Below the pieces are notes generated by a model. It ran no database searches. It saw only the letters and a list, made by a program, of their open reading frames with translations, and was not told where the DNA came from. This document shows, in pieces, positions 767-62,143 of a DNA stretch of 64,000 bases. This DNA comes from an uncultured bacterium. Lineage in GTDB: Bacteria > Bacillota_I > Bacilli_A > RFN20 > CAG-826. Location of the stretch: assembly GCA_949292105.1 (NCBI GenBank), contig CASEYK010000028.1, forward strand, positions 5,246 through 69,245. Reading direction: 5' to 3'. A program made the translations under genes and the position numbers. How positions within the stretch are numbered: position 1 is the stretch's first letter; every line of letters starts with the position of its first letter.

Positions 767-1115
767 TAAGTTAGCTATCATTTTATATAAGATATTATTT
801 GCGTTTGAAAAGAGTATAAAAGATGCTCTTTGAAAAATAAGATTTCTATATGTATTAAAATATAAATATATCTAAAAATTTTTTAGATACAACACTTGAA
901 AAATATAATTTCAAAAGTTTTTGAAAACCAAATTTCTAAAATATTTGGCGACATTGATCTTTCAATTATTGAATGGATTGATTAATCAAATTTAAATATT
1001 ATAAATACTCTGATTATTTTTATTTGAATACAAAGATTTATAAATCTATATTTTATATTGAAAAAAATCTTTGGATGTAAGATAAAAGTTTGATACAATA
1101 AGCGAAGAACAAATC

Positions 1116-2165
1116 ATGGAAAAAATTTTGAAAAATACTAAATATCGAAGAAACTATTTTACTAGCAAAGAACTGGTACCTTTTTATGATGCTTTAGTGG
1201 ATGCTATTTCAAAAAAGAAAAACTTTTTAGAAATTGGAGAATTACTAAATGATGTAAAAGCAGTAGATATTTCAAACGCTTTCGAAAATGTTTTTTTAGA
1301 TAATCCACAATTTTATTACTGTTTCAAAAATACTTTAGTGTTCATTCAAAATAATAGGTTAAATTTAAACTATCAAAACGAATTCACTGACAAAGAAGAA
1401 CAAAACATCGAACAAATAATCGAATATCTTGAAACAAAAACCAATGGTATGGATGAGTATAATACAGCGCTTTTTGCTTTTGAATTTTTAACTCGTTTTT
1501 GTGTGTATGATTCGCGAGCATTGGAAAAGGATTTATCAGAAAAATATGAAAAATTGTACTCTTCTTTTACTTTAAGAGGTGCTTTGATTGATCGAGTTGC
1601 GTGTTGCAATGGTGTTGCTTCAGCTTATTTATATATATTGTATAAATTAGGTATTGATTCGTATATTGCTCGTGCTTCTTTGCCATCACCAAATTCTAGC
1701 GAAAGATTGGAACATGTTTACAATGTCGTAATTATTAATGGTGTCAAGGTTAATGTTGATATTACTTTATCGATGAAAGAGAAGAATAGATTTTTTAGCA
1801 AAGAGAATAGAAATGTTTATTACACAACTCATATCGGCTTTGGTGTTAGCGATAAAGATTTAATTAATATGGGATATCGCCTTTATCAAGATCAAGTTGT
1901 TGACGTACCAACAGATGCAAATGAGAATTTTTCATATTTCATGAAAAATAATTTAATTTTTGATGATTTTCCTGCATTGCGTAACGCCATGTTCTCTATG
2001 TGTAATCGTCATAAGATGTTTGAATGCCGATATGATGGACATTTTAGTAGTCAAAAGCTTAGTGAAAATATTAGTAGGATAAAAAGCATTGTTTCTTGTG
2101 GGGGTATATTAAACCAATATGGAAGGTTCGTTATTTTAATAGGAGGAGAACTATATGAAAATTAA
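1116..2165 (+). CDS. Transglutaminase-like cysteine peptidase domain protein.
   Basis: The CNGVASAYLYILYKLGIDSYIARAS ... EHVYNVVII ... VNVDITL spacing fits a transglutaminase-like Cys-His-Asp core (C-x35-H-x15-D). Its stop overlaps the next start, so it is the first gene of a long + strand operon. Confidence 0.5.
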   Translation: MEKILKNTKYRRNYFTSKELVPFYDALVDAISKKKNFLEIGELLNDVKAVDISNAFENVFLDNPQFYYCFKNTLVFIQNNRLNLNYQNEFTDKEEQNIEQIIEYLETKTNGMDEYNTALFAFEFLTRFCVYDSRALEKDLSEKYEKLYSSFTLRGALIDRVACCNGVASAYLYILYKLGIDSYIARASLPSPNSSERLEHVYNVVIINGVKVNVDITLSMKEKNRFFSKENRNVYYTTHIGFGVSDKDLINMGYRLYQDQVVDVPTDANENFSYFMKNNLIFDDFPALRNAMFSMCNRHKMFECRYDGHFSSQKLSENISRIKSIVSCGGILNQYGRFVILIGGELYEN

Positions 2166-4344
2166 CAGCAACAGTTCAAAATTTCAAGAGGATTTATGGC
2201 AATATCTACAGTTATATAACAATATTATTATTGATGGTCTAATCACCGACAATCAACTCTATTACATTAGCAGTGAATCCGATAATTTAGATTTGGCCAA
2301 TGATGTTCTTCACTACATTGAGACCGCTTATAGCCAAGATTATATTATTATTGCTTATGATTCTGATAAGTCCGAAAAAAATCGCTTTCAACTTTTAACT
2401 GGCACCGAAATGGTAAAAGCAAATTTTAATTCTAAACAATTGGCTGAATTAGTGGATATTTTCAAGTTTGAAGGCTTGAAAGAAAACGATAAAGAAGAGT
2501 CGAGTTCGGATGTTGATGAGCTAAAACAAACTTTACAAAATTTTGATAAAAAATCAGAAGAAAATTTTGAAGAATCCCTTGAAATTAAACATGATAATTC
2601 TGGCCCATCGCTCGATATTTCAAAAATAATTTATGCTTCGAATAATATCACTGGTAAATTGCCATTCCTTTTTGTTTTTACTTCGACATCGCGTATGGCT
2701 ATGAATTCTGGGACTATTTCAACCATTTCAGAACAGATGACATATTCTGCTATTTTAAATTTATGCCGTGAAGATATTGGTGATAATAGGGCTATTATTC
2801 TCGTGAATAAAGCCAACGACTTACCTGCCTGGCTTGGCAGTGAGACAATCAATTTAGATATTAAGACACTCTCGATCGGTAAACCTAACATTGAACAGCG
2901 AAAACTGTTAGTTAAATATTTTCTGACTCTAACCGATAAAAATGGACAGTTTATTTCGAGCGGCAATTATTTAGATTATTACCGTCAAAATGATGTTGAA
3001 ACATTTACTAGTGATGTCGCGACTATTACGAGTGAGTTCACAAATGGCAAAATTTCCTTTTTGTTTGATTTTATGTCCATTTTTGCTGATACCCTTTTTG
3101 ACAAAACAACAAAAGAACCTTTGCCTTTAGACAAAGTTTTGTTCTTATTCGAAAATGGTGCCAATGCTCAAAATCCTTGGGATTCAAACGATGTCTACGA
3201 TAAAGTCAAACAAATCGAAGATGAGATTAATGCGACATTAGCAGGACAAGAGTATGTGGCTAAAAATATCCGTAAAAATTTAGGCACGGCCGTAACAGGT
3301 AGCAGAAGAATTTCAAATAAAAATGCTCCTCGCGCTGTATTTTTCTTAGCTGGTCCTACTGGTGTAGGCAAAACGGAAGCTACTAAGGTTATTGCTAAGA
3401 CTATTTTTGGCAGCGAAGACAAAATGAAGAGATTTGATATGTCAGAATATGCTCAAGAGCACACCGATCAAAGATTGTTTGGTGCTCCGCCAGGATATGT
3501 CGGTTATGATGCTGGCGGTGAATTGACCAATTATGTCGCTCAAAATCCATTTTCTCTACTTTTATTTGATGAAATAGAAAAAGCACATCCTAAAATTTTT
3601 GATAAATTTTTACAAATTTTGTCCGATGGTCGTTTAACCGATGGACAAGGGCGCACGGTTAGCTTTGAAAACTGCGTCATAGTGATGACGAGCAATGCTG
3701 GCATTTCTGTTGACAAATTTCAAAACAATGTTGGTGGAACTATCGTTGAAAGTATTGATCCAGATTTAGCTACCGCTTATGAAAAGGCTAATGTCGATTA
3801 TCATCTCGCAGATATCTCTAACCTCATCAAGCTTGAAACTGACAAGGCGCCTATTACCAGCAAAACCAATCCAAATATCGTGCTTAAAGATCCAAAAGAT
3901 TTTTATAGTCATTTTATCAAGTATGTCAACTGTAACCTTGAGTATCATTTTGAAAAAAAATTAAACCGAAAAGAGATTTATGGCCGTTTAGTTGACTCGA
4001 TTATTGTGTATAACTACATATCTCAAGATGCGATGGAAGTTATTGTTAAAAATCAAATTGAAAAGACCAACAAGCATTATTTGTCGACATATAATTTGAC
4101 TATTGATCCTTCAAAACAAGATGAACTGAAAAAGTTTTTAATCGATAAAGCCAATAACTCGACAACAAGAAGTCTCGGCGGGCGAGGCATCATTAAACTC
4201 ATTGACACTTTTTATGCTGACGCAATATCAGATACGATTTTGCAATTAGATTTGAAAAAAAATGGTCAACCAGTTGTCCTTTCTTGGGAAGAAATATCCG
4301 ATAACTATACGAAACAAAACAAATTGACTTTCAAATTGAAATGA
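2155..4344 (+). CDS. AAA+ ATPase with a ClpA/ClpB/ClpC D2-type module (residues about 390-560) and an unknown roughly 380-aa N-terminal region. No IGF/VGF ClpP-docking tripeptide is visible.
   Basis: Sequence FFLAGPTGVGKTE (Walker A) ... LFGAPPGYVGYDAGGELT ... SLLLFDEIEKAHPKIFDKFLQILSDGRLTDGQGRTVSFENCVIVMTSN is a near-textbook Hsp100 D2 signature. Confidence 0.7.
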   Translation: MKINSNSSKFQEDLWQYLQLYNNIIIDGLITDNQLYYISSESDNLDLANDVLHYIETAYSQDYIIIAYDSDKSEKNRFQLLTGTEMVKANFNSKQLAELVDIFKFEGLKENDKEESSSDVDELKQTLQNFDKKSEENFEESLEIKHDNSGPSLDISKIIYASNNITGKLPFLFVFTSTSRMAMNSGTISTISEQMTYSAILNLCREDIGDNRAIILVNKANDLPAWLGSETINLDIKTLSIGKPNIEQRKLLVKYFLTLTDKNGQFISSGNYLDYYRQNDVETFTSDVATITSEFTNGKISFLFDFMSIFADTLFDKTTKEPLPLDKVLFLFENGANAQNPWDSNDVYDKVKQIEDEINATLAGQEYVAKNIRKNLGTAVTGSRRISNKNAPRAVFFLAGPTGVGKTEATKVIAKTIFGSEDKMKRFDMSEYAQEHTDQRLFGAPPGYVGYDAGGELTNYVAQNPFSLLLFDEIEKAHPKIFDKFLQILSDGRLTDGQGRTVSFENCVIVMTSNAGISVDKFQNNVGGTIVESIDPDLATAYEKANVDYHLADISNLIKLETDKAPITSKTNPNIVLKDPKDFYSHFIKYVNCNLEYHFEKKLNRKEIYGRLVDSIIVYNYISQDAMEVIVKNQIEKTNKHYLSTYNLTIDPSKQDELKKFLIDKANNSTTRSLGGRGIIKLIDTFYADAISDTILQLDLKKNGQPVVLSWEEISDNYTKQNKLTFKLK

Positions 4345-4362
4345 AACGATAGGATTTAGAGT

Positions 4363-4656
4363 ATGGACGATAGAATAAATTATCTAATTTTTGGTAGATA
4401 TTTAGAAACGGCCAATCAAACAGATGATGCCGTTATTGCGTATGAGCATTTTATTAAAACACATAATTTTTATTCTTACTACGTTAACTTAAAAGGGAGA
4501 GAGTTTGTTGAGGAAGAAATAAAACAATTAAAAAAGATAGAAGATTTTTGTCATTATGAAGCGTTTTTGGATCAGTTAGAACAATTCTCTGAACATAATG
4601 AAATCAGTCAACTATCTAACATTGATTTTACTATTTGGCAAAATAGTTTCAAATAA
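4363..4656 (+). CDS. Small hypothetical protein (97 aa).
   Basis: ORF in operon context, sitting 19 bp after the stop of the previous gene. Confidence 0.4.
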   Translation: MDDRINYLIFGRYLETANQTDDAVIAYEHFIKTHNFYSYYVNLKGREFVEEEIKQLKKIEDFCHYEAFLDQLEQFSEHNEISQLSNIDFTIWQNSFK

Positions 4657-4683
4657 TTGTAAGGGAAAGGAGTAACAAATACG

Positions 4684-6189
4684 ATGGGCAGGCAAAAAAG
4701 TAGAAGCGCGTTTATTCGTCCAAAAGTAGTGCAGGACGAGCTGACAGCAGAAGAAAATAGTTCTACCAATTTTGAAAATGTTAATTCTTCTGAAGACTAT
4801 TTTCAGAGTAATTTAGATGCTTTAATGACTGCGGATGATGAATCTTCTATTCCCACAGCCAAAGAGCCAACAACTTCTGTTTCTGCTTATAATTTTTGTG
4901 GCAAAATTTTTGATATCGGTCAAGAAAAACAAGCTCTTGATTTTCTTTATGACAATAGAGCGGTTGATTATGTGTTCGCGTCAGATTTTTCTAAAACCAA
5001 TGAGTCAATTTCCTTTTCAAACAACTTTCAAAATATCATTAACAAATATTTTGCTTTGTTAGACAAAAAAAATGATGATTTGCAAAAATACGCCGAAGAA
5101 TATGTGCGCAATCATTTTTCTGAGCAAGATATTAATTTGAAATACAAAACCTTTTTGATAATCATGGCTTATGCAACCGACAAACTTATTATTAACTATA
5201 ATAACCGAAAGATTCGCTTTGAAAATCCAAGTGAAATGTTGAAAAAACTTTCAAGTGAAAACTTTAAATTAAATGGTGATTTTATTAAAAAATATGTTGA
5301 TGTTCTAGACTTTTATTATTTTAAAAAAGTCAACAACCACGATTATTGTGGAGCTCTATCAAAAGAAATATATAATAATTTTCTCGTTTTTGTTTCTCTC
5401 TCACCAGAAACAGGAAAAACTTATTTCGGAACACGAGAGGAAATCAAAAAGCTCTTAGACAAAAATAATTTCGTTGATGAAAAATATCATGCGGTATTAA
5501 ATGTGGATGAAGATTATAAATTTAAAACCCAATCGTTTTTAAATAACATTAGTCCAACAAATAAAGCAGAATTAAATACTGTCTTGCGCCATTTTGTTTC
5601 CCAATCATCAGTCCTTAATTATCTTTGCCTTTTGTTTATTAAAATTTCATTGATGAATTCAAGGATGTTTGTTTTAACAAACATTGATGAACAGCAAAAC
5701 TATGAATTGAAGTTTAATCAAGCCACCATTTTCGATGATTTGTGTGAGCTTGCTTCAAAATATGTGAGAAAGCAAATTAAGCCAATGTCGCCAGAAAGCA
5801 AAAAACTCGATATTATCTATTTATTTTTCAAAAACGGAATCTTTAGTGGATGGTTTGCTGATCGGCTATTGGATGTTAGTGATTCGCATTCAACTATCCA
5901 AAATTATGCTCAGCAAAAGAATTTGGACGATTTTTGTTTAGCGGTTTTTGATGCAACTAACAGCAAATATATCAAATGTAATTTTGAGTATTTAACTTAC
6001 GAAGAATTAATCGACGGAATGAAAAAAACACAGCCTATTAAATTTCTTTCAACACTCAGCGTATACATGAGAGACACAAAATTTTTTGAGACCTTAGGCA
6101 AGACTTTGGGCACAAAAATTGACATCGAAGCAATCCGCAAAAATGCAACTAATATACTGGAAAGTTGCGCACTAAATAAAAGGAGATAA
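4684..6189 (+). CDS. Hypothetical protein (501 aa).
   Basis: Long ORF preceded by a GGAG RBS. No recognisable motif. Within the operon. Confidence 0.5.
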   Translation: MGRQKSRSAFIRPKVVQDELTAEENSSTNFENVNSSEDYFQSNLDALMTADDESSIPTAKEPTTSVSAYNFCGKIFDIGQEKQALDFLYDNRAVDYVFASDFSKTNESISFSNNFQNIINKYFALLDKKNDDLQKYAEEYVRNHFSEQDINLKYKTFLIIMAYATDKLIINYNNRKIRFENPSEMLKKLSSENFKLNGDFIKKYVDVLDFYYFKKVNNHDYCGALSKEIYNNFLVFVSLSPETGKTYFGTREEIKKLLDKNNFVDEKYHAVLNVDEDYKFKTQSFLNNISPTNKAELNTVLRHFVSQSSVLNYLCLLFIKISLMNSRMFVLTNIDEQQNYELKFNQATIFDDLCELASKYVRKQIKPMSPESKKLDIIYLFFKNGIFSGWFADRLLDVSDSHSTIQNYAQQKNLDDFCLAVFDATNSKYIKCNFEYLTYEELIDGMKKTQPIKFLSTLSVYMRDTKFFETLGKTLGTKIDIEAIRKNATNILESCALNKRR

Positions 6190-6195
6190 CGCTAT

Positions 6196-8049
6196 ATGAG
6201 TTTATATACGCAAATTAATTATTACATCGATAAAATTCCATATAAATATCGAAATGTTATCAGTTATACAAATGGTGGATATTATGTCGATGGCCAGCGC
6301 ATCGCAACGCCGAGCGCAGATAGCGATGAAATAGAAGAGGCTTATCAGCAATATTTGGTGCAAACAGCGATTGATAATCTGCAAAGGAAAATTCGTTCGA
6401 AATATCGCTCGAGTTCATCTCAATTAGCTTCAGCCAAAAAACTCTATCAGCAAAAAATTAAAAATTTAAATTTAACCATGCAAGATTATTTGCAAAAACT
6501 TGATCGAATTGCACCTTCTTTAAATTCGCTTGAACAAATCAAGAGTCAAATTGCAAAACAAATAAGCGGTGGAATGAAAGAAGAAATAATAAGCAAACAA
6601 TCAATTGAAAATTCAATCGACAATGAAATAACAAAACTAGAAAAAATATATTCAAATTTCTCTAAAGAGAAAACCCCTTCTCTAAAAAAACTTGAAGATA
6701 TTCGATCTGAAATCAACGGAATCAGCACTAACTTTTTTAATTGTAAAGAGTCGCAAAACATTGATTTTCAACCCATTATAGATGCTTTTAATTCTTTATG
6801 CTCCATTGTCGGCGAAGCCTTGTCGACTTCAAACCAACTTTTTGATGAAACTGACAAGCAAAAATTGCAGCAGAAAATAGAAGCAGTGCTTAAAATGTGT
6901 CCGACAAATTTAAACGGCATTAATGATGCTGCAAAAGAAATTCAAACACATTATTCGGAAATAGTAAAAATCGCTGAGCAACGTTTAAAAAGAAAAGAAC
7001 GAGATATATCGCGAGAGGAATACTATCAGTTAGAAAAACAATTGTTTCAAAATCTAAATCATGTTGGCGAAATCCGAGAAAGAATATATGGAACGGTCGG
7101 TATGCAAGATTATTCGGGTTCCGCTGATGCCTTAAAAAAAGATGTCAAAAAACTTTTGGATAGTTTCAACTTCAGCGATTTAAATGAAGAATATATCGAT
7201 GAATATAAAGATATTGTTGAATACTTTTCGTCTAGATTTGACTCGGCCAAATTTTGGAACCAGCTTGAGTATAATGATTTAATAAAGTTGCGCGATCGAT
7301 TAATGCTCTTAAAAGATAACAATAGTGTACTAAGTGGAAGAAAAAAGAGTTTTGAGTCTCGTATTCGACAAATCAAACGATTTGCTACAATAGCTGGCAA
7401 AGAGTTTGATGTACCAAAAATGTCGCTTCTAAATTTTGAACAACAAGAAAAAATTTTAGAGAAGATACTGGCTGAAATGAAAACGGCTGCAGTCTTAAAA
7501 ACTTATCAAGAAACAATTAAACAGATTAGTCGGTATTTTCAAGAAAAAAATTTTATAGAACTAAAAACAGAGCGAACATCGCGAATGTTTGAAGGCGGAC
7601 TCTCATCACACCAAAGAGTCTTTGTCGATGAAAAGAACCCTTTCATTTTGCGCGTTGTAACAATCTATTCAAACAGCGAAGTAATTTCAGAAACTCGCCC
7701 AGCTGTTCTTGAACATAATGGCAAATTTTACTATTTACCTTTAAGCCAAGAACTTCTTAAACAGTTAAATAATTCATGTGATAGAGCAAAGGACAACAAG
7801 TTAATAGACTACAAAGGCGGCGTTGAAGAAGATCACAAGACATTAGAAGATGTATTTTATTATCGCGTATCAGACTCTGGTACCCAACTTATACTTGATT
7901 TATACAAATCTAATCAAGATATGCTTAATATTATTAAGCAAAGAGAAACAGATACTCTAAACGAGAAAATCAATAATATTACTACATCCCTCTCTAAGAA
8001 AGAAATGTCGCTTAAGATTGCTAGTCCTAGAGGTGGTAGTCAGTCATGA
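6196..8049 (+). CDS. Hypothetical coiled-coil-rich protein (617 aa).
   Basis: Long ORF preceded by an AGGAG RBS. K/E/Q-rich heptad-like stretches. Its stop overlaps the next start. Confidence 0.5.
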   Translation: MSLYTQINYYIDKIPYKYRNVISYTNGGYYVDGQRIATPSADSDEIEEAYQQYLVQTAIDNLQRKIRSKYRSSSSQLASAKKLYQQKIKNLNLTMQDYLQKLDRIAPSLNSLEQIKSQIAKQISGGMKEEIISKQSIENSIDNEITKLEKIYSNFSKEKTPSLKKLEDIRSEINGISTNFFNCKESQNIDFQPIIDAFNSLCSIVGEALSTSNQLFDETDKQKLQQKIEAVLKMCPTNLNGINDAAKEIQTHYSEIVKIAEQRLKRKERDISREEYYQLEKQLFQNLNHVGEIRERIYGTVGMQDYSGSADALKKDVKKLLDSFNFSDLNEEYIDEYKDIVEYFSSRFDSAKFWNQLEYNDLIKLRDRLMLLKDNNSVLSGRKKSFESRIRQIKRFATIAGKEFDVPKMSLLNFEQQEKILEKILAEMKTAAVLKTYQETIKQISRYFQEKNFIELKTERTSRMFEGGLSSHQRVFVDEKNPFILRVVTIYSNSEVISETRPAVLEHNGKFYYLPLSQELLKQLNNSCDRAKDNKLIDYKGGVEEDHKTLEDVFYYRVSDSGTQLILDLYKSNQDMLNIIKQRETDTLNEKINNITTSLSKKEMSLKIASPRGGSQS

Positions 8050-8612
8050 TTATCGCCTATATCATTCCAGACATAAAAGACACACTAGGCCCAAACAACC
8101 GATTATGTATATGGGTGAAAGGATGTAAAAAACATTGCAAAAACTGTTTATCACCAGAATTAAGAGCTTTTGCGGGAAATGATTTAGATGTTATAACTTT
8201 TCTCGAAGATAATGTTGATTTTTCGAAAGTGGAAGGAGTAAGCATATCAGGCGGAGAGCCATTTTTACAAAATAATGAACTATTAGATTTGGTTGTTTAT
8301 CTCGAAAGTAAAACAAAGGATATCTTAATCTATTCAGGATACAAATATGAAGAATTAGCAAAAGATCCAATCAACAGATTAATTTTCAAACACATCGCCT
8401 GTTTAATTGACGGAGAATATCTTTACGAACAAGATAAAAACGAAAAATTGAAAGGTTCACTAAATCAGCGCTTTATTTTCTTCCGAAAAGAGTTTGAAAA
8501 CTTATATTTATCTTTGAATAAAAAAGAGAGACAGCCAATTCCTATCATATTTGATAATGAGCATCTATATTTAGAAGTTGGACTACGAAAAAGGAGTACG
8601 AAGAATGTATAA
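8046..8612 (+). CDS. Radical SAM activase-like protein of the 4Fe-4S single-cluster NrdG/QueE/PflA-type.
   Basis: Sequence GPNNRLCIWVKGCKKHCKNCLSP carries a CxxxCxxC cluster motif after a GP..R motif, as in NrdG. VEGVSISGGEPFLQ is the GGEP SAM-binding motif. Size is 188 aa. The start overlaps the upstream stop (ATGA). Confidence 0.6.
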   Translation: MIIAYIIPDIKDTLGPNNRLCIWVKGCKKHCKNCLSPELRAFAGNDLDVITFLEDNVDFSKVEGVSISGGEPFLQNNELLDLVVYLESKTKDILIYSGYKYEELAKDPINRLIFKHIACLIDGEYLYEQDKNEKLKGSLNQRFIFFRKEFENLYLSLNKKERQPIPIIFDNEHLYLEVGLRKRSTKNV

Positions 8613-10680
8613 CTATTACTTTGATTACAAAATTAAAAATGCATCAGACGGTAAAGAATTGTCGAAATATGACGACATCATGTTTTACATAGATCGTCTA
8701 TTTGACGACAATATTTCAAAATTTTGTTATCGTTTAGTGCTCTGCATTAGAAGAGAAATATCAGAACCAACAAACGGCGAACAATGTGTCGACACTATTT
8801 TTGGATGTGAGGATAATTTAAACGAAAAAAACTATGTATCTATTATCCATTTTAAACCCGGTGCATTGCCATCCAATCGCGATGATTTCAATTCTAATTA
8901 TTATTCTCTTTTTGAACATCCAAATAGTGACATTCACTATTTTTTCGAGCATTATACGAGGCTCAGTTCAAACAAAGATGACAATAAAGAGTGTTACTAC
9001 TTGAAATATGTTCTTGATATTCCTGAAGAAAATATTTCATCAATTGGAATGATTGGATTTTCTTCGTCGCTTCAAGAATGCCCTTCGCTGGCTAATACAT
9101 ATTTCTATGAAATTGAATTTTATCGGAAAAAACATATTTTTTATAGCATAGAGAAAAGTTCAAAAAAACTAAAAATTACAATCAAAAACATTCCTCAGGT
9201 TCCGAGTGATATCAAGTTTGTTGTTGCTGGTGATTCATCCCCCATTTATAAATTTGATAACAATATACTCGATGGATTTGAATTAGAGATGAAAGCTGGT
9301 TCTGCTTCTAGAACTATTGAAAAGGAATTCGAGTTGAGTGACGAACAGAGCAAATACAATCATTTTCGTCTTGCCATTAAAACTTATTCAAATGATGACG
9401 AAAATGAATATTTGAAAAATCTTCCATCAAAATTATTTCTTCTTTACCCTCTTCAAGCGCCCGATATAAAAGACAAAACTGATAAGGTAGAAAGAGAAAA
9501 TGTCGGGACTGAAAAGAAAATTTGTCCATTTTGTGCTCAAGAGTTGAATAAAGATGCTTTACAAAGTAAACATCTTCAATATTGTGATGGTGAATTAATA
9601 CCAGTTAAATTTCTTAACAAAAAAGGCAAAAAAATTAAAAAGGTTGTTGCTTGTAAACGATATAACAAATCTAATGGTAAATCTAATCCGACGGTGCCGA
9701 TGGTCATTCCACCTTTTTTGCTCAAAAAGAAAGCAAAAACGATAGTAATCGGTTTAAGCGGTGCTGCTAGCAGTGGTAAATCAGTTTTTCTTTCATCCCT
9801 CTTAAAACTTCAAAATGGCGTTAGCCACGATTTAACATATTTGAACGCCTATACGTCTTTTTATAAAAACAATTTTGAATTAGTTGATTTATTTTATGTC
9901 GAAAATAAAAAAGAAACTGGTCCGACCAACATCTGTGATTTAATGTCGCAACTCGTAAAAGAAACAACGAACAGCACTTCCTCGCGCCTTTACGACAATT
10001 TTAAAATGAATTATTTGAATAAGGGAGGCTTGTTTCAAAAGACCGGAGGAGACGACTTTTATCATCCATTTATTTTTAAATCAAATCATGCTTCATTTGT
10101 TATCAAGGATTTTGCTGGAGAAATTCTATTTGAGGAATCAGAAAATTATGACAATCCTTTGGACCCAAAATTGACCATTGATAATTCTGATGCCTATCTT
10201 GTTTTAATTAAGCCGAATCAAACTGTAGATGAATTTGGAAAAACTTTATCTAGAATTTTAAATAATCAAGATAATAAAAATAAGCCAATCGCCATTGTTT
10301 TGTCTAAATTTGATCTGTTCATTCAACAAAATCAAGATAAAATAGATCCTTCTTTGGCAGCCTTGGTAGATGATACATACTCTCTAATGAATCTTCGCTC
10401 TTATTCTGGCTCTTTGTTAGAAAAAAATGTCGAACGCGCTTCAGAAGAAATTAAAGCTATAATCAAAGATACAATCAAGTCTTTCCCCTTCGAAGCCACA
10501 GAAGGATTTACAAATGTAAAATATTTTGCCATTTCTTCTTTAGGAGGAGATTATCGTTCTTGTCCTGAAAATTTAACAAACGCAGGCGATAGTAATAATA
10601 TATTAGGAATTTATCTTTCTCCATATCGCATCGAGCTCCCAATCCTTTGGATATTACAACAAACTGGAATTATCATGTAG
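8605..10680 (+). CDS. Zn-ribbon + P-loop NTPase (GTPase-like G1/G3/G4 motifs) protein.
   Basis: Sequence CPFCAQELNK...HLQYCDG is a CxxC...C ribbon. GLSGAASSGKSVFLSSLL is Walker A / G1. DFAG is G3. SKFD is a G4-like motif. The start was moved to the ATG at 8605, which follows an AAGGAG RBS. The ORF track begins at a TTG at 8578. Confidence 0.5.
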   Translation: MYNYYFDYKIKNASDGKELSKYDDIMFYIDRLFDDNISKFCYRLVLCIRREISEPTNGEQCVDTIFGCEDNLNEKNYVSIIHFKPGALPSNRDDFNSNYYSLFEHPNSDIHYFFEHYTRLSSNKDDNKECYYLKYVLDIPEENISSIGMIGFSSSLQECPSLANTYFYEIEFYRKKHIFYSIEKSSKKLKITIKNIPQVPSDIKFVVAGDSSPIYKFDNNILDGFELEMKAGSASRTIEKEFELSDEQSKYNHFRLAIKTYSNDDENEYLKNLPSKLFLLYPLQAPDIKDKTDKVERENVGTEKKICPFCAQELNKDALQSKHLQYCDGELIPVKFLNKKGKKIKKVVACKRYNKSNGKSNPTVPMVIPPFLLKKKAKTIVIGLSGAASSGKSVFLSSLLKLQNGVSHDLTYLNAYTSFYKNNFELVDLFYVENKKETGPTNICDLMSQLVKETTNSTSSRLYDNFKMNYLNKGGLFQKTGGDDFYHPFIFKSNHASFVIKDFAGEILFEESENYDNPLDPKLTIDNSDAYLVLIKPNQTVDEFGKTLSRILNNQDNKNKPIAIVLSKFDLFIQQNQDKIDPSLAALVDDTYSLMNLRSYSGSLLEKNVERASEEIKAIIKDTIKSFPFEATEGFTNVKYFAISSLGGDYRSCPENLTNAGDSNNILGIYLSPYRIELPILWILQQTGIIM

Positions 10681-10692
10681 GAGGAACTGAAA

Positions 10693-12882
10693 ATGGAAGA
10701 AAAAACAAACTGGAGTTTTATCAAGCTAGATGCTCAAAAAGATGTGCACATCGCTTTGACGAGTGGTATTTTTCTCGGAAATAACTCTGCATATTACAAA
10801 GATTTAAGCGCGTCAGGCTTTTTGAATATTCAAAGCAGCTTTTTATGCGAACAATTTTTTAGTTATCGGCCAATTGTGATCAATAATACGCTTACCTATT
10901 CTTTTATCTATGGATTTAAGGCCCACGCGACAACCAATCGAAGCACAAATGCCTTTTCATATATTGCATGTTCATCAAATACTTTCAATGCAAATCCAGC
11001 ATTGTTTATTGATAATTCATTTTGTTCAAGCCTTTTTGAAGAATTTAAAACGCTAAATAATGTTGATGCTCTAAACGAGAGTATTAACACAAAATTTGCC
11101 GATAAACCGAAACAATATCATATTAATGAAGAGCTTTGCTCTATCGTTATTGATATAGTCGACAAAATGGTTAAACACGATTTTAAGAAAACTATTTTGC
11201 TCAAAAATTTTGATACTGCTACTATTGGTCTCATCATTCAAGGCGTTTTTTATCTTCTTCCCAAGGATATTGCAAAAGAGCTCTCGTATGTTACCTCCGC
11301 TAGCGGACAAGAAGTTTTAAAGTTTGCTATCGCGGGTCAAACTGATCAATCTAGTCTTGATTCTTCGCGGTTCATCGAATTTCCATCAAAAAATATCAAT
11401 ATCGAAACTTCATATGGAAAGTTTTTGCTAGATAACAAATCTCGAATCGATGATATTGCAACAAAAATTCAGCAAAAACTCGAAAGCCCTATCTTCAATG
11501 ATTTGATAGCTAACAAAAAATATTCCGACGCAGCAATGCTAACTCCTATTTTTATTGGCGAAAAAGATAATTACTTCAATTTGAAATTCGATTTGCAACA
11601 AGTAATTTTAACGAGTTGTGCCAATAATTTAACTGCAGGCATTGCAAAAGAAGCAGTGGAGAAACTACTAAGCGCTTCAATTGATGACAAAAATAGTCAA
11701 CAAAAGGCCGCCCAACAAAGTATCATAAATTTAAGCAAACAATGTGATTTTATATCTTTGATAAATAATGACGACTTAAAGAAATTCGCTGAAAAAATTA
11801 TAGGCGGCAAAGCCACAATCAACTTTGAAAAGATTAATAACCACTTATTAGAATATTATCGCGTGATGTTTGATTGTGTTTTAACTCTTGGTGATGACGA
11901 ACAAAAAGCTAAATTTGTTAATAAATTATCAAACAACTATATTGAGGCAGCATTTGTTAGACAATATCTTACTGATTTGCTTGAATGCGATGATAGCCGA
12001 CAACTTATCAAATACTTATTATTAGAAAACGACTTTATTGAAACTTATTTCAAAGATCGTTCTTCAAACCTAACAAATAACCAATCAAACTTTTCGAAAG
12101 CAGTTGAGGTTAATGTTGTCAACCCAAATAACATCGAATCAAATTTGAAGATATTATTATCAATCGAAAATAATGCATCGGTTAAAAAATTAAGTGAGAG
12201 AAAAAATAGTTTAAATTTTTTGGCTGCCCACTGTTTTAATTATTCTATTGAAGAAATTCTAGGAAACAAAGAGTTAATTATTCACTCAAACTATTTGTAT
12301 AGGCAAGCTTACGCTGCGATGGCTAAAATTATTGGTAGCGATGACAAAGAAACTGAAAAAACTATCAAGAAAAATCTAGACGAAATTCTAAAATTTTGTA
12401 ACCACATTAATGAGTTAGAAGTTGGTGATAACGGCCTTGATACTTTTTCCATTGATAAAATTAAGAAAATGTCAGAATTCGCTGAAAAAGAAAAGAAATC
12501 ATTTTTAATCTTAACCGATGAAAACGATGGTTTTTTAACTAGATTTAACCAGTTTGATAACTATGTGAAAAATATTCCAGCAACAAAAGCTGAAACAAAT
12601 TTCTTTAAAACAACATCCGCGACATCATATTCCCTTATCATTTGTTTTGTCTTAATTGATTTGTTGCTCTCCATCCCGATTTTTTATATGGACAAAGTCA
12701 TATTCCTGTATTCGCTGCTCTCCATCCCTCTTACAATTATTGTCTCGCTTGTCATTCAATTTTTATTTGAAAAAACGCTTAAAAAAATCATGATGAAATA
12801 CATCTCGCTCGGGGCATTATTCAGTTCGATTATTCCTCTAGTTTTAATCAACATATGTTTATTCGTTCTAATGTTTATCTAG
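10693..12882 (+). CDS. Large hypothetical protein with four C-terminal transmembrane helices.
   Basis: ORF of 729 aa preceded by a GGAGG RBS. The last roughly 110 aa are strongly hydrophobic segments. Confidence 0.5.
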   Translation: MEEKTNWSFIKLDAQKDVHIALTSGIFLGNNSAYYKDLSASGFLNIQSSFLCEQFFSYRPIVINNTLTYSFIYGFKAHATTNRSTNAFSYIACSSNTFNANPALFIDNSFCSSLFEEFKTLNNVDALNESINTKFADKPKQYHINEELCSIVIDIVDKMVKHDFKKTILLKNFDTATIGLIIQGVFYLLPKDIAKELSYVTSASGQEVLKFAIAGQTDQSSLDSSRFIEFPSKNINIETSYGKFLLDNKSRIDDIATKIQQKLESPIFNDLIANKKYSDAAMLTPIFIGEKDNYFNLKFDLQQVILTSCANNLTAGIAKEAVEKLLSASIDDKNSQQKAAQQSIINLSKQCDFISLINNDDLKKFAEKIIGGKATINFEKINNHLLEYYRVMFDCVLTLGDDEQKAKFVNKLSNNYIEAAFVRQYLTDLLECDDSRQLIKYLLLENDFIETYFKDRSSNLTNNQSNFSKAVEVNVVNPNNIESNLKILLSIENNASVKKLSERKNSLNFLAAHCFNYSIEEILGNKELIIHSNYLYRQAYAAMAKIIGSDDKETEKTIKKNLDEILKFCNHINELEVGDNGLDTFSIDKIKKMSEFAEKEKKSFLILTDENDGFLTRFNQFDNYVKNIPATKAETNFFKTTSATSYSLIICFVLIDLLLSIPIFYMDKVIFLYSLLSIPLTIIVSLVIQFLFEKTLKKIMMKYISLGALFSSIIPLVLINICLFVLMFI

Positions 12883-12898
12883 TAAGGAGGATGTAGCA

Positions 12899-13882
12899 AT
12901 GGCACAGAAACAAAAAAGAAGTTTAAAACCATCACAAATCGAAAAAAACATTGTTGTTATTACCTCCCTTCTAGGAGCGATATTTCTTTCTTTTGGAATT
13001 TATCTTGTCACCGAACGAAAAATAAACAATGAGTTAAAAGAGTTTGATGATTTCACTTCATCGACAAAATACATATATTCAGTCAAGGATTTGAATGGCA
13101 TCAAATCCAAAAACATGAATGATACTTATATTTTGATGGAAGACTTAACTATTGAAAATGGTCTTTCCACATATAGTGCCAATTCATCATTAACAGGTAC
13201 TTTCGATGGCAATGGCCACACCATAACTTTTAACTGTATGCCTAAAAACCCGTTATTTTATCGAATTGATAAAAATGGCACTGTTAAAAATCTCGGACTA
13301 AAATTTAATATTTCCTTTACGCCTGAAACCAAAAACTTTGCCGGCATTTGTGAGATTAATGAAGGGACAATTATGGACTCATTCGCTTATTATGAATCGC
13401 TCGGAGTTTTGGATAACAATTATATCGGCGGATTAGTTTGTTATAATCAAGGCATTATTGAAAGATGTGTCTCTTCTGTTTCTTTTCAAGAAAATTCAAA
13501 CTACATTTCGTCATATCGCATCGGCGGTATTGCTGGAGTTAATCGGGATGGTGGCAAAATAACAAAATCTTTTTCGGTGGTTTCTTCTTATTATCTCGAC
13601 AATTTAAATTTTGAAAACCATTCGGAAGAATTCATTCCTTACATCGGTTCAATTGTTGGCTATCAATCTAGCAACTCTACATTGTTGAATGTTTACACAA
13701 ATACTAACGATGCTCCTTTCAGCGATAGGAATGAAGTTATTCAGTACGACCTCACTTATTTATTGACGTCCGATTTTCTATTTTCAACTAAAACTGTCAA
13801 TTTTTCTTCAACTAAATGGCATATTGTTGAAGGAGAATTACCCCAGTTGAATGAACAAATTAAAAGCGAGGGTATTTTATGA
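12899..13882 (+). CDS. Membrane-anchored GLUG-motif protein.
   Basis: N-terminal TM helix. TGTFDGNGHTITFN box followed by IGGLVCYNQGIIERC and IGGIAGVNRDGGKITKSF, which match the GLUG repeat pattern. An AGGAGG RBS precedes it. Confidence 0.5.
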   Translation: MAQKQKRSLKPSQIEKNIVVITSLLGAIFLSFGIYLVTERKINNELKEFDDFTSSTKYIYSVKDLNGIKSKNMNDTYILMEDLTIENGLSTYSANSSLTGTFDGNGHTITFNCMPKNPLFYRIDKNGTVKNLGLKFNISFTPETKNFAGICEINEGTIMDSFAYYESLGVLDNNYIGGLVCYNQGIIERCVSSVSFQENSNYISSYRIGGIAGVNRDGGKITKSFSVVSSYYLDNLNFENHSEEFIPYIGSIVGYQSSNSTLLNVYTNTNDAPFSDRNEVIQYDLTYLLTSDFLFSTKTVNFSSTKWHIVEGELPQLNEQIKSEGIL

Positions 13883-16800
13883 AAACCATTTATAAAATTG
13901 TTGCGACTTTATTAATTCTTTGTATTTCGGCGATTGCCGTCATTCCATTGACTTTGTATTTCTTAGATGACAACGAGATTGAAGAAATTGTTGTTGACGA
14001 TGATGTAATGGAAGTCAGGCCATCTAGAACTTATACAATTTTGCCACAAGCTTTAGATGAAAAAGGTTCGCTCTCGTCTAATTACGAATTTGAATTTTCT
14101 TCTTCCAATCCAAATATATTGACTTTTGAATCCGAAAATAGTGGTACATTTACAGTCTCGAGCAAAGCAAGCGTTGGTAGCGAATGTGAAATTGACATTT
14201 CTGTTCAAAATGTGAGCAAAACAATAGAAGTAAAAGTTGTCGAATCACAAAACTATTTTCTTGATATCGATTTGAGCAATAATGGCGAAAATATTTCTAG
14301 CCAAGATTTGTTTTTTGGAAATGAATACAAACTTAATTTTACTATTTATCCCAACTTAGTTTCTTTACTTGATTGTCAAATATCTGTTTTAGATAGTGAA
14401 ATGAATATCATAAATAATTTGATTGAAATAACAAAAGACAGTAGCAATTACTATTTAAAAATGGTAGGCGCTGGAACTGGTTTTATTAAAATTCAATACA
14501 ATGGCGATTTCTTTTTAATTCCATTTATTTCAAGTTTTAAAGAGAAGGTTCTTAATGACGCATTAAATATTACAAATCAAAACTATACAAGAAACGATAT
14601 CAATAGTTTGACAACCATATTGATTGATATGGATATATCAAGTATTGATTTGCAAGAGTTAAGCTCATTTTCTTCACTTGAATATATTACTGTTGTTAAC
14701 GACAAAGTTATCGATTTTAAAAACTATAACAGTTCAAATTTTGATATTGTTGTGCGAACACATAGTGGCAGTTTGCAAATTTACGATTTATACGAAAAAA
14801 GTGAGATAGATAATAAACTTTTAAGTCGAATATATCCAGCATCTCCTATCACTTTTAATTTAACGGTTGTCTATTACTACACAAATCCGAACACGAGTAT
14901 TCTTGAATATGAAGTGATGTATTATAAGCAAGATGGAACAGAACAACTTTTGGATATGCCCAGTTGTTTTTCTGGCCAACTATATGAGACAGTACCAAAC
15001 AATGAGTATTGGTACTATACATCAAATTATTCTGAACAAGTTGAAGGTATTGACACAATTCAACAACCGCGCGTTAAATTGTTCGGCAAATTCATAGGAT
15101 CTCAATTTAATTTATCTTTTATTGTAGGAAATGAGGTATTTAAAGAAATGACAATTTCTCACAACGATTTAATTACAGCCGAAGATTTAGAAGAACTCAA
15201 TAGAAATAACATTGAAGAATTTTATTTCAAAAACAACGGATACTATTCTAGATTTTATGATTGGGTTAATAAAGAAGGAGATGTGGTTGATATAAATCGA
15301 GAAATAGCAAATATTTCTTCTGATACTGAAGGCTCGGAAGTATCTTATTACGCGAGGATGAAAAGAGAATTTGAAGTTCAAACATTAGTAAGTGAAGAAG
15401 CCTATTACACTGAAGATTCAAAAAGAGAATTCATTGTTTGCTATAAGGAAACTTTTACAGGCTTAAACGATGTTAAGGTTTCGAGAGACAATATTGCTTT
15501 GGAAGGATGGTATTTTAATAATTCAATTAAAATTACGCCAGACTCTATTTTCGATTTTGATGTCGATTACAATCAGACGATTATATTAGAAGCCAAGTGG
15601 TTTGGAGCATTCAGTTATATTTACGAATTTACCGCCTATGTGTTAGACGACATTTCTGAAGCAACTTTAGACTTATCTAATTATACTGATTCAAATCACA
15701 CTCATTATGAACTGTTAGTCAAAGACAATATTCAATCTCTCAATATCATCGGCAGCAGTAATGGAACATATGTGAATACAAATATTGTTATTGCCGAGCG
15801 CCAGTCGGATTTGGAATTAACGCTAGAAAATGTCAACATATTAAATAATTTAGATGTTATGACAATTGATGCGACACAAGTCAAAGATCATTACATTTAT
15901 TTGAATATAATTGGGGAAAATAATTTTGTTTCATCTGGCCGAAGTTTTGGTTCGGATAAATTTATGGTCAACATCCCTAATTTATTTGTCAGTGGCAGCG
16001 ATGCAATTATCTCTTTTACATCGACATCCCCATATGGAGAAAATGGAATGTTGGTGGATAATTTGACTTTAACTCATGCTAGCATGAGCGTTATCGGCTC
16101 TTCAAATATTTCATATACTGAAGGGCAAAAAAATGGTGGCATTGGTCTTAAAGCGAATAATGAAATAAAAATGTTAGATGGCGCAAAATTAGAAGTAAGA
16201 GGCGGCGATGGTGCAGATGGGAAAGATTATGGAAACATCACTGCTCAAGCCGGCGCTAACGATACTGCTTCTGGCGCTAATGGTAGCAATGGTGAATCAG
16301 GAATAAATGGTGAAAATGGTGGTAATGGTGGCGACGCAATAGTTGCTAATAGTTTACATATTGAGAATAAATCAACTCTTATCGCTCAAGCCGGCAATGG
16401 TGGCAATGGCGGCGATGGTGCTAGTGGTGGTCGCGGAGGAAATGGAGCGAAAGGATCAACCGCTAGCAAAGGTGGTGACGGCGGAAATGGTGGCAATGGC
16501 GGCAATGGTGGCGATGCTGGTAACGCTGGCTTCTCATTAAATACCAACATTTTGAAAGCTATTGATAATGGAGCTCGCATTGATTTATATGAACCAACGC
16601 CTGGAAAAGGTGGTAATGGTGGTAACGGCGGCAACGGTGGTAACGGCGGCGATGGCGGCGATAAAAAAACATTTATAGGTATTCCCTATGGTGACAGAGG
16701 TGTAAAAGGTATTGGTGGTAACGGTGGCGATGGCGGTGATGCTGGCCAAAACGGACAATATAAATTAGCTATTACCATCAATGATTACGAGTCTTCATCT

Positions 16801-16998
16801 TCAAGTATAGGCATACCAATTTATGTTCATAAAACAAGTACTGTTTCATTAACTGCTTCTGGTGGTTCGTATGGTCTTATGGGGAATAATGGTTCAGAAG
16901 GTAAAACACAATCAATAACTGGTGTTTCTGGCAGTTCTGGCGATTCATTCATTGCCATTTACGATTTAGAGTATCCACTTTATTGTGTTATGATGTAA
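13879..16998 (+). CDS. Large surface protein. It has an N-terminal signal/anchor, a Big_2-like Ig domain, and a C-terminal Gly/Asn/Asp-rich low-complexity tail built from GGNGG repeats.
   Basis: Hydrophobic N-terminus. A TYTILPQA...GSECEIDISVQNVSKTIEVKVV segment looks like a Big_2 domain. Residues about 770-960 are GGNGGNGGDGG-type repeats. The start overlaps the upstream stop (ATGA). Confidence 0.55.
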   Translation: MKTIYKIVATLLILCISAIAVIPLTLYFLDDNEIEEIVVDDDVMEVRPSRTYTILPQALDEKGSLSSNYEFEFSSSNPNILTFESENSGTFTVSSKASVGSECEIDISVQNVSKTIEVKVVESQNYFLDIDLSNNGENISSQDLFFGNEYKLNFTIYPNLVSLLDCQISVLDSEMNIINNLIEITKDSSNYYLKMVGAGTGFIKIQYNGDFFLIPFISSFKEKVLNDALNITNQNYTRNDINSLTTILIDMDISSIDLQELSSFSSLEYITVVNDKVIDFKNYNSSNFDIVVRTHSGSLQIYDLYEKSEIDNKLLSRIYPASPITFNLTVVYYYTNPNTSILEYEVMYYKQDGTEQLLDMPSCFSGQLYETVPNNEYWYYTSNYSEQVEGIDTIQQPRVKLFGKFIGSQFNLSFIVGNEVFKEMTISHNDLITAEDLEELNRNNIEEFYFKNNGYYSRFYDWVNKEGDVVDINREIANISSDTEGSEVSYYARMKREFEVQTLVSEEAYYTEDSKREFIVCYKETFTGLNDVKVSRDNIALEGWYFNNSIKITPDSIFDFDVDYNQTIILEAKWFGAFSYIYEFTAYVLDDISEATLDLSNYTDSNHTHYELLVKDNIQSLNIIGSSNGTYVNTNIVIAERQSDLELTLENVNILNNLDVMTIDATQVKDHYIYLNIIGENNFVSSGRSFGSDKFMVNIPNLFVSGSDAIISFTSTSPYGENGMLVDNLTLTHASMSVIGSSNISYTEGQKNGGIGLKANNEIKMLDGAKLEVRGGDGADGKDYGNITAQAGANDTASGANGSNGESGINGENGGNGGDAIVANSLHIENKSTLIAQAGNGGNGGDGASGGRGGNGAKGSTASKGGDGGNGGNGGNGGDAGNAGFSLNTNILKAIDNGARIDLYEPTPGKGGNGGNGGNGGNGGDGGDKKTFIGIPYGDRGVKGIGGNGGDGGDAGQNGQYKLAITINDYESSSSSIGIPIYVHKTSTVSLTASGGSYGLMGNNGSEGKTQSITGVSGSSGDSFIAIYDLEYPLYCVMM
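16195..16765 (+). repeat. Degenerate tandem 15-nt repeats (ggt ggc aat ggc ggc, and variants) encoding the GGNGG tail.
   Basis: Visible by eye. The antisense PPLPPLPP ORF at 16386-16634 is the mirror image of this repeat. Confidence 0.7.
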
Positions 16999-17032
16999 AA
17001 CAATATAAATAAAATTTGGCGAGGTGTTTTCA

Positions 17033-57571: not shown

Positions 57572-57572
57572 T

Positions 57573-58274: not shown

Positions 58275-58298
58275 TGATAAAAAAGAGGAAGGAAAAAA

Positions 58299-59901: not shown

Positions 59902-59931
59902 TTCATTAATTTTTTATTTTGTATATAATTA

Positions 59932-60050: not shown

Positions 60051-60082
60051 GCCCAAGCAGAAAGTAAAGGTGGTTATTCTTA

Positions 60083-60786: not shown

Positions 60787-60804
60787 CAGCGCTAGTCTTT
60801 TCAA

Positions 60805-61456: not shown

Positions 61457-61471
61457 AAAGAAGGTGTAAGC

Positions 61472-62140: not shown

Positions 62141-62143
62141 CGT

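Follow-up and report, generated by a model that had tools for sequence, protein, structure and literature searches.

A block of ten co-directional genes at positions 1116–16998 of a 64,000-nucleotide (nt) stretch of DNA from an uncultured bacterium (contig CASEYK010000028.1, positions 5,246 to 69,245; the whole stretch is called the window below) appears to form one conserved module, which we assign with moderate confidence to a divergent and undescribed architecture of the DO-GTPase/GAP1 conflict systems of the N2 type, with a conflict role probably directed against invaders. The window is part of a ~85-kb metagenomic contig present in several samples. Because its GTPase is homologous to those of described systems, its next gene probably encodes a GAP1 protein and its peptidase recurs in canonical loci with DO-GTPase, GAP1-N2 and HSP70 genes, the core of the block would belong to the GTPase-centric systems of Kaur et al. 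(2020). A first-pass annotation made from the sequence alone had recognized no described system in this gene set, a claim that these features overturn.

DO-GTPase/GAP1 systems were predicted by Kaur, Burroughs, Iyer and Aravind in 2020 (eLife 9:e52696; PMC7159879; families PF19993, PF20013 and PF20014, with DO-GTPase1 as PF19975). DO-GTPases are TRAFAC GTPases with a Walker B glutamate in a DxxGE motif and, in ~60% of members, one or two N-terminal zinc ribbons, and GAP1 proteins of the N2 type carry C-terminal transmembrane (TM) helices and are encoded directly downstream of the DO-GTPase gene (PMC7159879). The themes of N2-type systems are tubulin/vWA, HSP70/GrpE/DnaJ and kinase/PP2C, and a protein with rapidly evolving fibronectin type III (FNIII) repeats is said to define these systems (PMC7159879). 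No other paper on GTPase-centric DO-GTPase systems was found in the literature searched.

The ten genes, P1 to P10, with their domains and the region upstream, are as follows (aa, amino acids; HMM, hidden Markov model; ORF, open reading frame; AF2, AlphaFold2; SAM, S-adenosylmethionine).

880–1115, + strand: conserved upstream region, probable module promoter (similarity to the related strain L007 begins here, 86% over 240 nt)
1116–2165, + strand: P1, transglutaminase-like cysteine peptidase, 349 aa, predicted cytoplasmic (PDB 9crn_A, E = 2e-11)
2155–4344, + strand: P2, predicted AAA+ unfoldase, 729 aa (AAA_2 at residues 392–522, E = 1.5e-44)
2155–3189, + strand: P2 N-terminal half, residues 1–345, family-specific, without match
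3190–4341, + strand: P2 ClpC/ClpE/ClpB D2-type ATPase, residues 346–729 (ClpE and ClpC D2 are the best PDB matches, E ~1e-50)
4363–4656, + strand: P3, small orphan, 97 aa, no family match (position and HMM conservation only within variant 1, defined below)
4684–6189, + strand: P4, orphan, 501 aa, no family match
6196–8049, + strand: P5, orphan, 617 aa, with a long N-terminal part rich in K, E, Q and L and, at the C-terminus, a beta-rich domain in which a Cys is conserved
8046–8612, + strand: P6, minimal NrdG-like radical SAM enzyme, 188 aa (Fer4_12, E = 2e-24; TIGR02491, E = 4e-23)
8605–10680, + strand (ORF also from 8578): P7, DO-GTPase-type switch protein, 691 aa, with the three domains below
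8605–9489, + strand: P7 beta-rich N-domain (all-beta in the AF2 model)
9511–9660, + strand: P7 zinc ribbon (CPFC...C...C)
9727–10677, + strand: P7 TRAFAC GTPase (G1, G2, G3 and G4 motifs)
10693–12882, + strand: P8, probable divergent GAP1, 729 aa, with a large cytoplasmic part (gene follows that of the GTPase immediately, where GAP1 is expected)
11146–11301, + strand: P8 GAP1-M-like segment, residues 152–203 (hhalign)
12610–12879, + strand: three or four C-terminal TM helices of P8 (TM prediction)
12899–13882, + strand: P9, N-terminally anchored extracellular GLUG-motif protein, 327 aa (Glug, E = 9.3e-7; TM helix at residues 14–32)
13879–16998, + strand: P10, N-terminally anchored large surface protein, 1039 aa (TM helix at residues 7–25; GGN tandem repeats)

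Most of these identities had been proposed in the first-pass annotation and stand after database comparison: the transglutaminase-like peptidase, the Hsp100 D2-type AAA+ protein with its unmatched N-terminal half (~380 aa as first given, ~345 aa here), three proteins of no known family of which one is coiled-coil-like, the NrdG-type radical SAM enzyme without a glycyl-radical partner, the GTPase preceded by a zinc ribbon, and the membrane-anchored GLUG protein. P8 does end in TM helices, their count being three or four where four had been named. The Gly-Asn repeats of P10 stand as well, and the protein starts with a TM helix, but its Big_2 assignment was not verified: it has no Pfam match, and its relatives carry Flg_new (Listeria-Bacteroides) repeats instead.

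That the ten genes form a unit is supported first by their spacing. All lie on the + strand with the coordinates and the overlapping or abutting junctions originally given, successive gaps being −11, 18, 27, 6, −4, −8, 12, 16 and −4 nt when P7 is taken to start at ATG 8605, which is preceded by an AAGGAG ribosome-binding site and is also the start called in a related strain. GGAG-type ribosome-binding sites precede most other starts of the block, and neither terminator-like sites (12 vs 9.8 ± 3.6 in shuffles) nor promoter-like consensus matches within it exceed shuffle expectation. The region 880–1115 is the probable site of the module promoter, with promoter-like hexamers at 882–909 and 1024–1052 that are consensus matches only.

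Comparative genomics provides the stronger evidence. Among loci fetched from genomes of P7 relatives found by a HMMER scan, the same ten genes occur in identical order in three metagenome-assembled genomes (MAGs), from an uncultured member of the Bacilli (L009), the Erysipelotrichales (L010) and the Anaeroplasmataceae (L011), at a protein identity of only ~16–40%. Protein sizes from P1 to P10 are 349/729/97/501/617/188/691/729/327/1039 aa in the window and 356/776/119/503/604/180/693/711/320/1033, 360/715/118/538/606/186/680/804/323/992 and 349/745/187/570/629/190/655/803/324/1238 aa in the relatives, the last three lists following the order in which the MAGs are named. Each locus of this arrangement (variant 1) is preceded by a gap of 200–340 nt and has unrelated genes on both flanks, and the 11-nt overlap of P1 and P2 is identical in four of four. 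A strain of ~93% identity (L007) has a different gene upstream, and its similarity to the window starts at ~880. Because the order is kept between different flanks and this similarity sets in at ~880, the boundaries drawn in the first-pass annotation are those of the conserved module; its end at 16998 is a module boundary by comparative genomics and need not be the end of a transcript.

A second arrangement (variant 2) was recovered from further metagenomes (L015–L022, GC content 38–60%) with nine genes in rearranged order: an AAA+ gene homologous to P2 over its full length (hhalign 100%), genes for proteins of 184, ~700 and ~660 aa, the radical SAM gene, a long GTPase gene, a gene for a ~940-aa protein with C-terminal TM helices, a gene for a ~980-aa homologue of P10 (hhalign 99.4%) and, moved to the 3' end, the peptidase gene; the GLUG gene is missing. 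The ten-gene order shared with L009–L011 is far beyond chance, and variant 2 retains the AAA+, radical SAM, GTPase, P8-like, P10-like and peptidase genes. The flanking genes include a group II intron reverse transcriptase/maturase immediately before the module in L011 (1–1200) and, behind the module in L010 (19324–21740), a pair of radical SAM genes of which one has a SPASM domain.

The GTPase ties this module to described systems most firmly. Profile comparison makes P7 a clear homologue of GAP1-adjacent DO-GTPases: an HMM built from 20 such GTPases matches its residues 303–690 (E = 3.9e-25; hhalign 99.8%, E = 6e-30), and hhalign links it at 97.4% to L024_493, itself a Pfam DO-GTPase2 match (6e-9). 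DO-GTPase2 is the top Pfam match of P7 and is found at E < 0.01 in 21 of its 48 relatives (best, 4.8e-10). The zinc-ribbon residues C307-P-x-C310, C327 and C350 are conserved in the alignments, and E506 of the DxxGE Walker B motif is invariant in all three relative alignments. The AF2 model (predicted local distance difference test (pLDDT) score of 79; predicted template modelling score of 0.87) places a Rag/Arf/Rab-like GTPase domain behind an all-beta N-domain of ~300 residues, the latter seen only in the long GTPases of variants 1 and 2. The family is rare, with 70 relatives among 1.84 billion representative proteins in a full HMMER scan, and word-index searches with P7 and P8 returned relatives of at least 93% identity only.

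P8 is quite likely a very divergent GAP1, a reading that leans on intermediate sequences. The place of its gene behind the GTPase gene and its C-terminal TM helices, as known for N2-type GAP1, agree with this reading. The best matches of its HMM outside the family are the variant-2 proteins in the same position (E = 4e-4 to 5e-3), one of which, L019_942, matches Pfam GAP1-M at E = 0.0013. In hhalign comparisons of the N-terminal 420 residues, P8 aligns with its variant-2 counterpart (91%, E = 1e-6, 51 columns), this counterpart aligns with canonical GAP1-N2/M (96%, E = 9e-9, 231 columns), and P8 aligns in the same segment with a merged profile (67%, E = 5e-5). The GAP1-N2 domain (PF20013) was not detected, P8 residues 1–130 remaining unaligned to the N2 region in every comparison.

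The peptidase provides a further connection. P1 matches an NCBIfam transglutaminase-related family (MAG6410, E = 1e-7), and its Cys164, His200 and Asp215 align with the CNG, HAWN and D-x-T motifs of 9crn_A and of Pfam-positive Transglut_core relatives, so that the catalytic triad is in place; all relatives retain the three residues, among them the Transglut_core proteins encoded at canonical GAP1 loci. Since the P1 HMM matches the peptidases of canonical DO-GTPase/GAP1 loci at 1e-16 to 1e-27, the peptidase is an accessory that the module shares with the canonical systems. One such locus, L024, encodes a DO-GTPase2, HSP70, an HSP70-vWA protein, a protein with a zinc ribbon, another DO-GTPase2, GAP1-N2/GAP1-M and a HerA-like ATPase, and its Transglut_core product is recognized by the P1 HMM at 1e-22; together with L038 the locus represents the canonical loci of the HSP70 theme that were recovered.

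In the window's module, searches against Pfam and NCBIfam found none of the tubulin/vWA, HSP70/GrpE/DnaJ or kinase/PP2C themes, and P2 is its ATP-driven remodelling component. P2 has a Walker A motif (400–407), a GYVG pore loop (447–450), a Walker B motif (468–477), sensor-1 (512–514) and a GGR motif (675–677), with sensor-2 and the Arg finger region intact and a weak D2-small domain. NCBIfam Hsp100 matches span the D2 core only and fall far below their cut-offs (208 vs 1232 bits for ClpB). The N-terminal 345 residues have no match in Pfam or in a PDB profile search. That they form a degenerate D1 AAA+ ring is not supported, hhalign against P2's own D2 giving 0.1% and the PDB profile search nothing significant. 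Docking of P2 to a ClpP pair encoded further downstream through a VGF-type loop was rejected, the window having VGG and the loop not being conserved in L009–L011.

Two PADLOC models, PDC-M37B (E = 2e-30) and DolB (E = 3e-22), also match P2 and raise the question of whether the block joins two unrelated neighbours, an AAA+/peptidase module P1–P5 of Dodola or PDC-M37 type beside a GTPase/radical SAM/membrane module P6–P10. Defence genes often cluster, and a TIR-STAND gene directly follows P10, both of which would fit such a juxtaposition. The PADLOC matches are nevertheless limited to the generic AAA+ core (residues 348–535), and the PADLOC models found no DolA (DUF6414) or PDC-M37A partner among the ten proteins. 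Moreover, complete loci of variants 1 and 2 always contain both halves although the loci have diverged deeply, the halves stayed together even when a change of gene order put the peptidase beside the membrane half, and the junctions overlap or measure less than 30 nt. We therefore consider a chance pairing of two systems quite improbable and continue with the ten genes as a single unit.

Within that unit, the radical SAM enzyme is associated with the GTPase. P6 scores 82 bits against TIGR02491, under the 126-bit equivalog cut-off, and its C27-x3-C31-x2-C34 and SGGEP (68–72) motifs are conserved in 11 relatives. No glycyl-radical or ribonucleotide reductase family match was found among the scanned ORFs of the window, all those of more than 600 aa included, NrdD and PFL were not seen there, and P1–P20 contain no RVxG[FWY]-like motif. 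In all ten loci of variants 1 and 2 that span this junction, the radical SAM gene lies directly upstream of the long GTPase gene; it is missing from about 20 canonical loci, the exception being L038. The latter (909–19671) has another DO-GTPase/GAP1 architecture, in which HSP70 stands with a radical SAM enzyme of the same NrdG-like subfamily, a fusion of AAA and trypsin domains, one more AAA protein and a pair of RCC1-repeat proteins of ~1060 aa.

The most likely task of P6 is to modify one of the module's own proteins. Since P6 and the beta-rich N-domain of P7 are strictly found together and their genes overlap, this N-domain is the favoured target, as a first guess and the least certain step of our reconstruction. 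A glycyl-radical-like G[FY]S motif in this N-domain was examined and discarded, as only the first Gly of SGxGxI is invariant across 48 relatives and the 'GF' is not conserved.

For P3, P4 and P5, the three non-enzymatic proteins of this set, no relation was found to the correspondingly placed genes of variant 2 or of canonical loci, save for a weak resemblance of the P5 C-terminal domain to its variant-2 counterpart (hhalign E = 0.013), in both of which a Cys is conserved. The N-terminal part of P5 is probably a coiled-coil, its only library matches being weak ones to coiled-coil families, and its stop codon overlaps the start of P6 (ATGA). The P4 relatives of L010 and L011 have an N-terminal Cys4 zinc ribbon, and a single-sequence AF2 model of P4 was unusable (pLDDT 36). 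A search with a concatenated alignment of P3, P4, P5 and P8 returned no relatives.

At the other end of the module, P9 is conserved in variant 1 only, and P10 ends in a GGN-rich C-terminus. Between the window and the ~93%-identical strain L007, the ratio of nonsynonymous to synonymous differences is 0.15–0.33 for P2, P3 and P6, which are under strong constraint between the two strains, and 0.7–1.26 for P1, P4, P5 and P7–P10. P2 is the most conserved gene of this pair and P10 the most divergent (88.6% amino acid identity); P9 also has a high ratio, and both count among the fastest-evolving genes of the set. The divergence of P8–P10 is what would be expected if these proteins face a changing ligand. 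In three different lineages the module has BspA-type LRR_5 surface proteins as neighbours (L007 1–294, L011 18588–21395 and L022 18675–21716), the one in L022 being fused to a second transglutaminase-like domain.

These surface features could also be the purpose of the module, and the first-pass annotation had left the choice between a conflict or defence system and a surface-structure assembly pathway. On the latter view P9 and P10 would be the products, and the cytoplasmic enzymes, from the ATPase and the GTPase to the peptidase and the radical SAM protein, would serve in their folding, modification, export or anchoring. Both products look adhesin-like (a GLUG motif in P9, Flg_new-type relatives and a GGN-rich tail in P10) and carry N-terminal anchors, P8 is membrane-embedded, and the flanking BspA-type proteins would be in keeping with such a role. 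However, the module lacks a secretion ATPase, a sortase signal and a glycosyltransferase, variant 2 dispenses with P9, the GTPase family also turns up in loci that have no P9- or P10-like gene, where HSP70, TIR, trypsin and RCC1 proteins are its partners, and its rarity and patchiness would be unusual for a structural pathway. The conflict option fits the evidence better, and adhesin biogenesis seems to us improbable.

A different view of P10 arises from its relatives in L011 (14825–18541) and L019 (14649–17582), which carry a Hint or bacterial-intein-like autoprocessing module near the C-terminus, behind the Flg_new repeats. Hint and PT-HINT-like modules behind repeats, present in L011 and in variant-2 relatives, are an architecture known from polymorphic toxins, and P10 might accordingly be an autoprocessed exported effector used against other bacteria, its release controlled by the cytoplasmic machinery. 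The P10 of the window, however, has no Hint module and has the GGN-rich tail instead, no toxin domain or immunity-like gene was identified, and the region behind Hint is conserved among variant-2 loci (32–40% identity, like the rest of the protein). A polymorphic-toxin reading of the P10 relatives was rejected on this last ground, the post-Hint region being conserved and not polymorphic, and effector release has in our estimate only a slim chance of being correct.

Support for a conflict role of the DO-GTPase module comes from the family relationship, from its rarity and patchiness, from the different neighbours found in ~93%-identical strains, from the nonsynonymous to synonymous ratios given above, and from the TIR-NACHT-TPR-APH gene that adjoins it downstream. 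The module also keeps intact catalytic motifs in P1, P2, P6 and P7. Several observations weigh against this role or against the family assignment behind it. The literature searched yields no experiment on any DO-GTPase/GAP1 system, so that the conflict role is in turn only predicted. Searches of phage, plasmid and viral-contig records found neither the GTPase nor any other relative of the block, which leaves mobility unsupported; the surface proteins would also fit a non-defensive envelope role. The DO-GTPase2 score of P7 is 17.8 bits (E = 0.0027) vs a gathering cut-off of 27. P8 and four relatives have no Pfam match, GAP1-M (PF20014) not being found in them directly, the direct hhalign comparison of P8 with canonical GAP1 gives 10% (E = 0.003, same segment), and the link between the two runs through the 51-column segment and no other part of the protein. 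No Pfam fn3 match occurs in any of the ten proteins, and the FNIII-repeat protein was thus not found. P3–P5 have no detectable relatives outside variant 1, variant 2 included. Finally, L038 has the same radical SAM subfamily but a short GTPase without the P7 N-domain.

If the assignment holds, a working model can be envisioned. P8, P9 and P10 would form an envelope-spanning sensor of a surface or membrane cue, such as phage attack or another invader, and P8 would pass the cue to P7, which would act as a GTP-dependent switch. The switched-on complex would recruit or license the P2 unfoldase and the P1 peptidase, the former an Hsp100-type ATPase in place of the HSP70 or tubulin modules of described systems, and these would remodel and cleave targets, either the module's own scaffold or effector proteins P3–P5 or proteins of the host or the invader, with growth arrest or blockage of the invader as the outcome. 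P6 would modify a system protein, the P7 N-domain being favoured. In its boldest form, the module and its nine-gene sister would constitute a distinct envelope-coupled immune machine in which the radical SAM enzyme modifies or radical-activates the DO-GTPase N-domain or another system protein and thereby licenses the Hsp100-type unfoldase and the peptidase to take apart or process target proteins, a radical-SAM-gated and GTPase-switched proteolytic defence with no characterized precedent; we regard this full scheme as speculative and rather unlikely to be right in all its parts.

Downstream of the module, the co-directional array continues for ten more genes to 32132, with no gap of more than 89 nt and no convincing terminator.

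17024–20845, + strand: TIR-NACHT-TPR-APH (TIR-STAND) protein, 1273 aa (Pfam TIR, NPHP3_N, TPR and APH)
20935–21855, + strand: P12
21874–23733, + strand: VirD4-like ATPase, a VirD4/TraG-like coupling-protein homologue (Pfam)
23739–25916, + strand: protein with three TM helices
25885–26988, + strand: two adjacent ClpP paralogues (Pfam)
26999–29383, + strand: TM/RyR protein, 794 aa, with N-terminal TM helices and a weak RyR-domain match
between 29383 and 30795, + strand: two small proteins
30795–32132, + strand: Sel1-repeat protein (Pfam), which closes the 20-gene co-directional array

The downstream ten genes are not part of the conserved module in L009–L011. The TIR-STAND protein begins 25 nt after P10 and has an Avs/bNACHT-like architecture with an unusual C-terminal kinase-like domain. 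Some of the other genes recur near related systems: ClpP followed by a P12-like gene stands at the end of the canonical DO-GTPase/GAP1 locus L035 (15544–16576), a relative of P19, a small protein of 158 aa, occurs in L017, and VirD4-like homologues lie directly upstream of P1 in L010 (412–2091) and, in L019 (20284–21609), two genes past the end of variant 2, canonical GAP1 loci having a HerA/FtsK-like ATPase instead. The downstream genes may be exchangeable accessories or effectors of DO-GTPase systems, or mere neighbours in a defence island.

The VirD4-like gene could instead mark the array as cargo or part of a conjugative element, either an integrative and conjugative element or one with type IV secretion. 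The protein at 21874–23733 matches T4SS-DNA_transf and TraG-D_C, and the homologue directly upstream of the module in L010 would point in the same direction. Yet neither a relaxase, VirB4, VirB6 or an integrase nor any other type IV secretion gene was found among the scanned genes of the array, no plasmid record shows similarity, housekeeping and origin-proximal genes follow, as in a chromosomal context, and FtsK/HerA-type ATPases also occur inside canonical GAP1 loci. A conjugative origin is accordingly very improbable.

The right half of the window has the content of an ordinary chromosome, with Suf genes, MnmG, ParA/ParB, Der and a heliorhodopsin. The Suf Fe-S genes, MnmG, ParA, ParB and Der lie on one strand within 51028–63466 and the cumulative GC skew rises steadily, which suggests that the window is chromosomal and origin-proximal. 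The heliorhodopsin gene (37425–38213, + strand; Pfam E = 2e-96) stands in a genome of gut-metagenome type with 32% GC. The sole Rfam match in the window is an FMN riboswitch at 59931–60046 (+ strand, 92.9 bits) upstream of an ORF at 59998–60786; no Rfam element lies near the module, and no tRNA was found within the 64 kb.

Few predicted bacterial conflict systems are as large as those of the DO-GTPase/GAP1 kind, and the variant described here would be a compact and sharply bounded unit of ten genes with four assayable enzymes, namely a GTPase, an AAA+ unfoldase, a cysteine peptidase and a radical SAM protein. It suggests that chaperone modules of the Hsp100 and HSP70 types are interchangeable in these systems, whose shared output would then be the remodelling of proteins. 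A concrete biochemical question arises from the NrdG-like radical SAM enzyme, which lacks a glycyl-radical partner and is strictly coupled to a GTPase whose N-domain is unique. Should the module prove to act against phages or plasmids in gut Bacilli and Mollicutes-like bacteria, it would enlarge the defence catalogue by a system of new mechanism.

Among known proteins, P2 shares with the Hsp100/Clp proteins (ClpB, ClpC, ClpE and the D2 of ClpA) the D2-type AAA_2 domain, the pore loop and the sensor motifs; unlike them, it lacks the D1 ring, the Clp N-domain and the middle domain, the ClpP-docking [IVL]G[FL] loop is not conserved among its relatives (absent in L009–L011), and it is encoded within a conflict-type operon. 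The defence operon of Dodola (DolA/DolB) and that of the PADLOC defence candidate PDC-M37 also encode a ClpB-like AAA+ protein, whereas their gene content besides the AAA+ core is unrelated to the ten-gene module. P6 resembles the NrdG/glycyl-radical activases (TIGR02491, Fer4_12) in its minimal size, its CX3CX2C motif and the GGE motif for SAM, and it can be aligned with NrdG along almost the full length of the model; it departs from these activases in its sub-cut-off score, its missing glycyl-radical partner and the constant coupling of its gene to a DO-GTPase gene.

The closest resemblance is to the GAP1-N2-type systems, and it is half a match to a known, named system, a finding that the first-pass annotation had named as one that would refute its reading: the core is of the type described by Kaur et al., but the AAA+ protein, the radical SAM enzyme, P3–P5 and the GLUG protein are absent there. 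The paper's text on GTPase-centric systems mentions no Hsp100/Clp-type ATPases, radical SAM, ClpP or HerA, nor counterparts of the orphans P3–P5, GLUG and Flg_new-type surface proteins or a transglutaminase-like peptidase (PMC7159879). In contrast to those systems, the module replaces the HSP70/GrpE/DnaJ, tubulin/vWA and kinase/PP2C themes by a ClpC/E-D2-type AAA+ protein, adds the NrdG-like radical SAM enzyme and the ~300-aa beta-rich GTPase N-domain, has a single GTPase gene together with the orphans P3–P5 and GLUG and Flg_new/GGN surface proteins, and presents GAP1-M only transitively and GAP1-N2 not detectably. Both have a TRAFAC GTPase that bears a zinc ribbon and the DxxGE motif, and behind it a large protein that ends in TM helices. 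They also share additional TM and extracellular components, a module that remodels proteins at the expense of ATP, a host range of the Firmicutes type and a transglutaminase-like peptidase, which is also encoded in the canonical loci L024, L028, L029 and L034.

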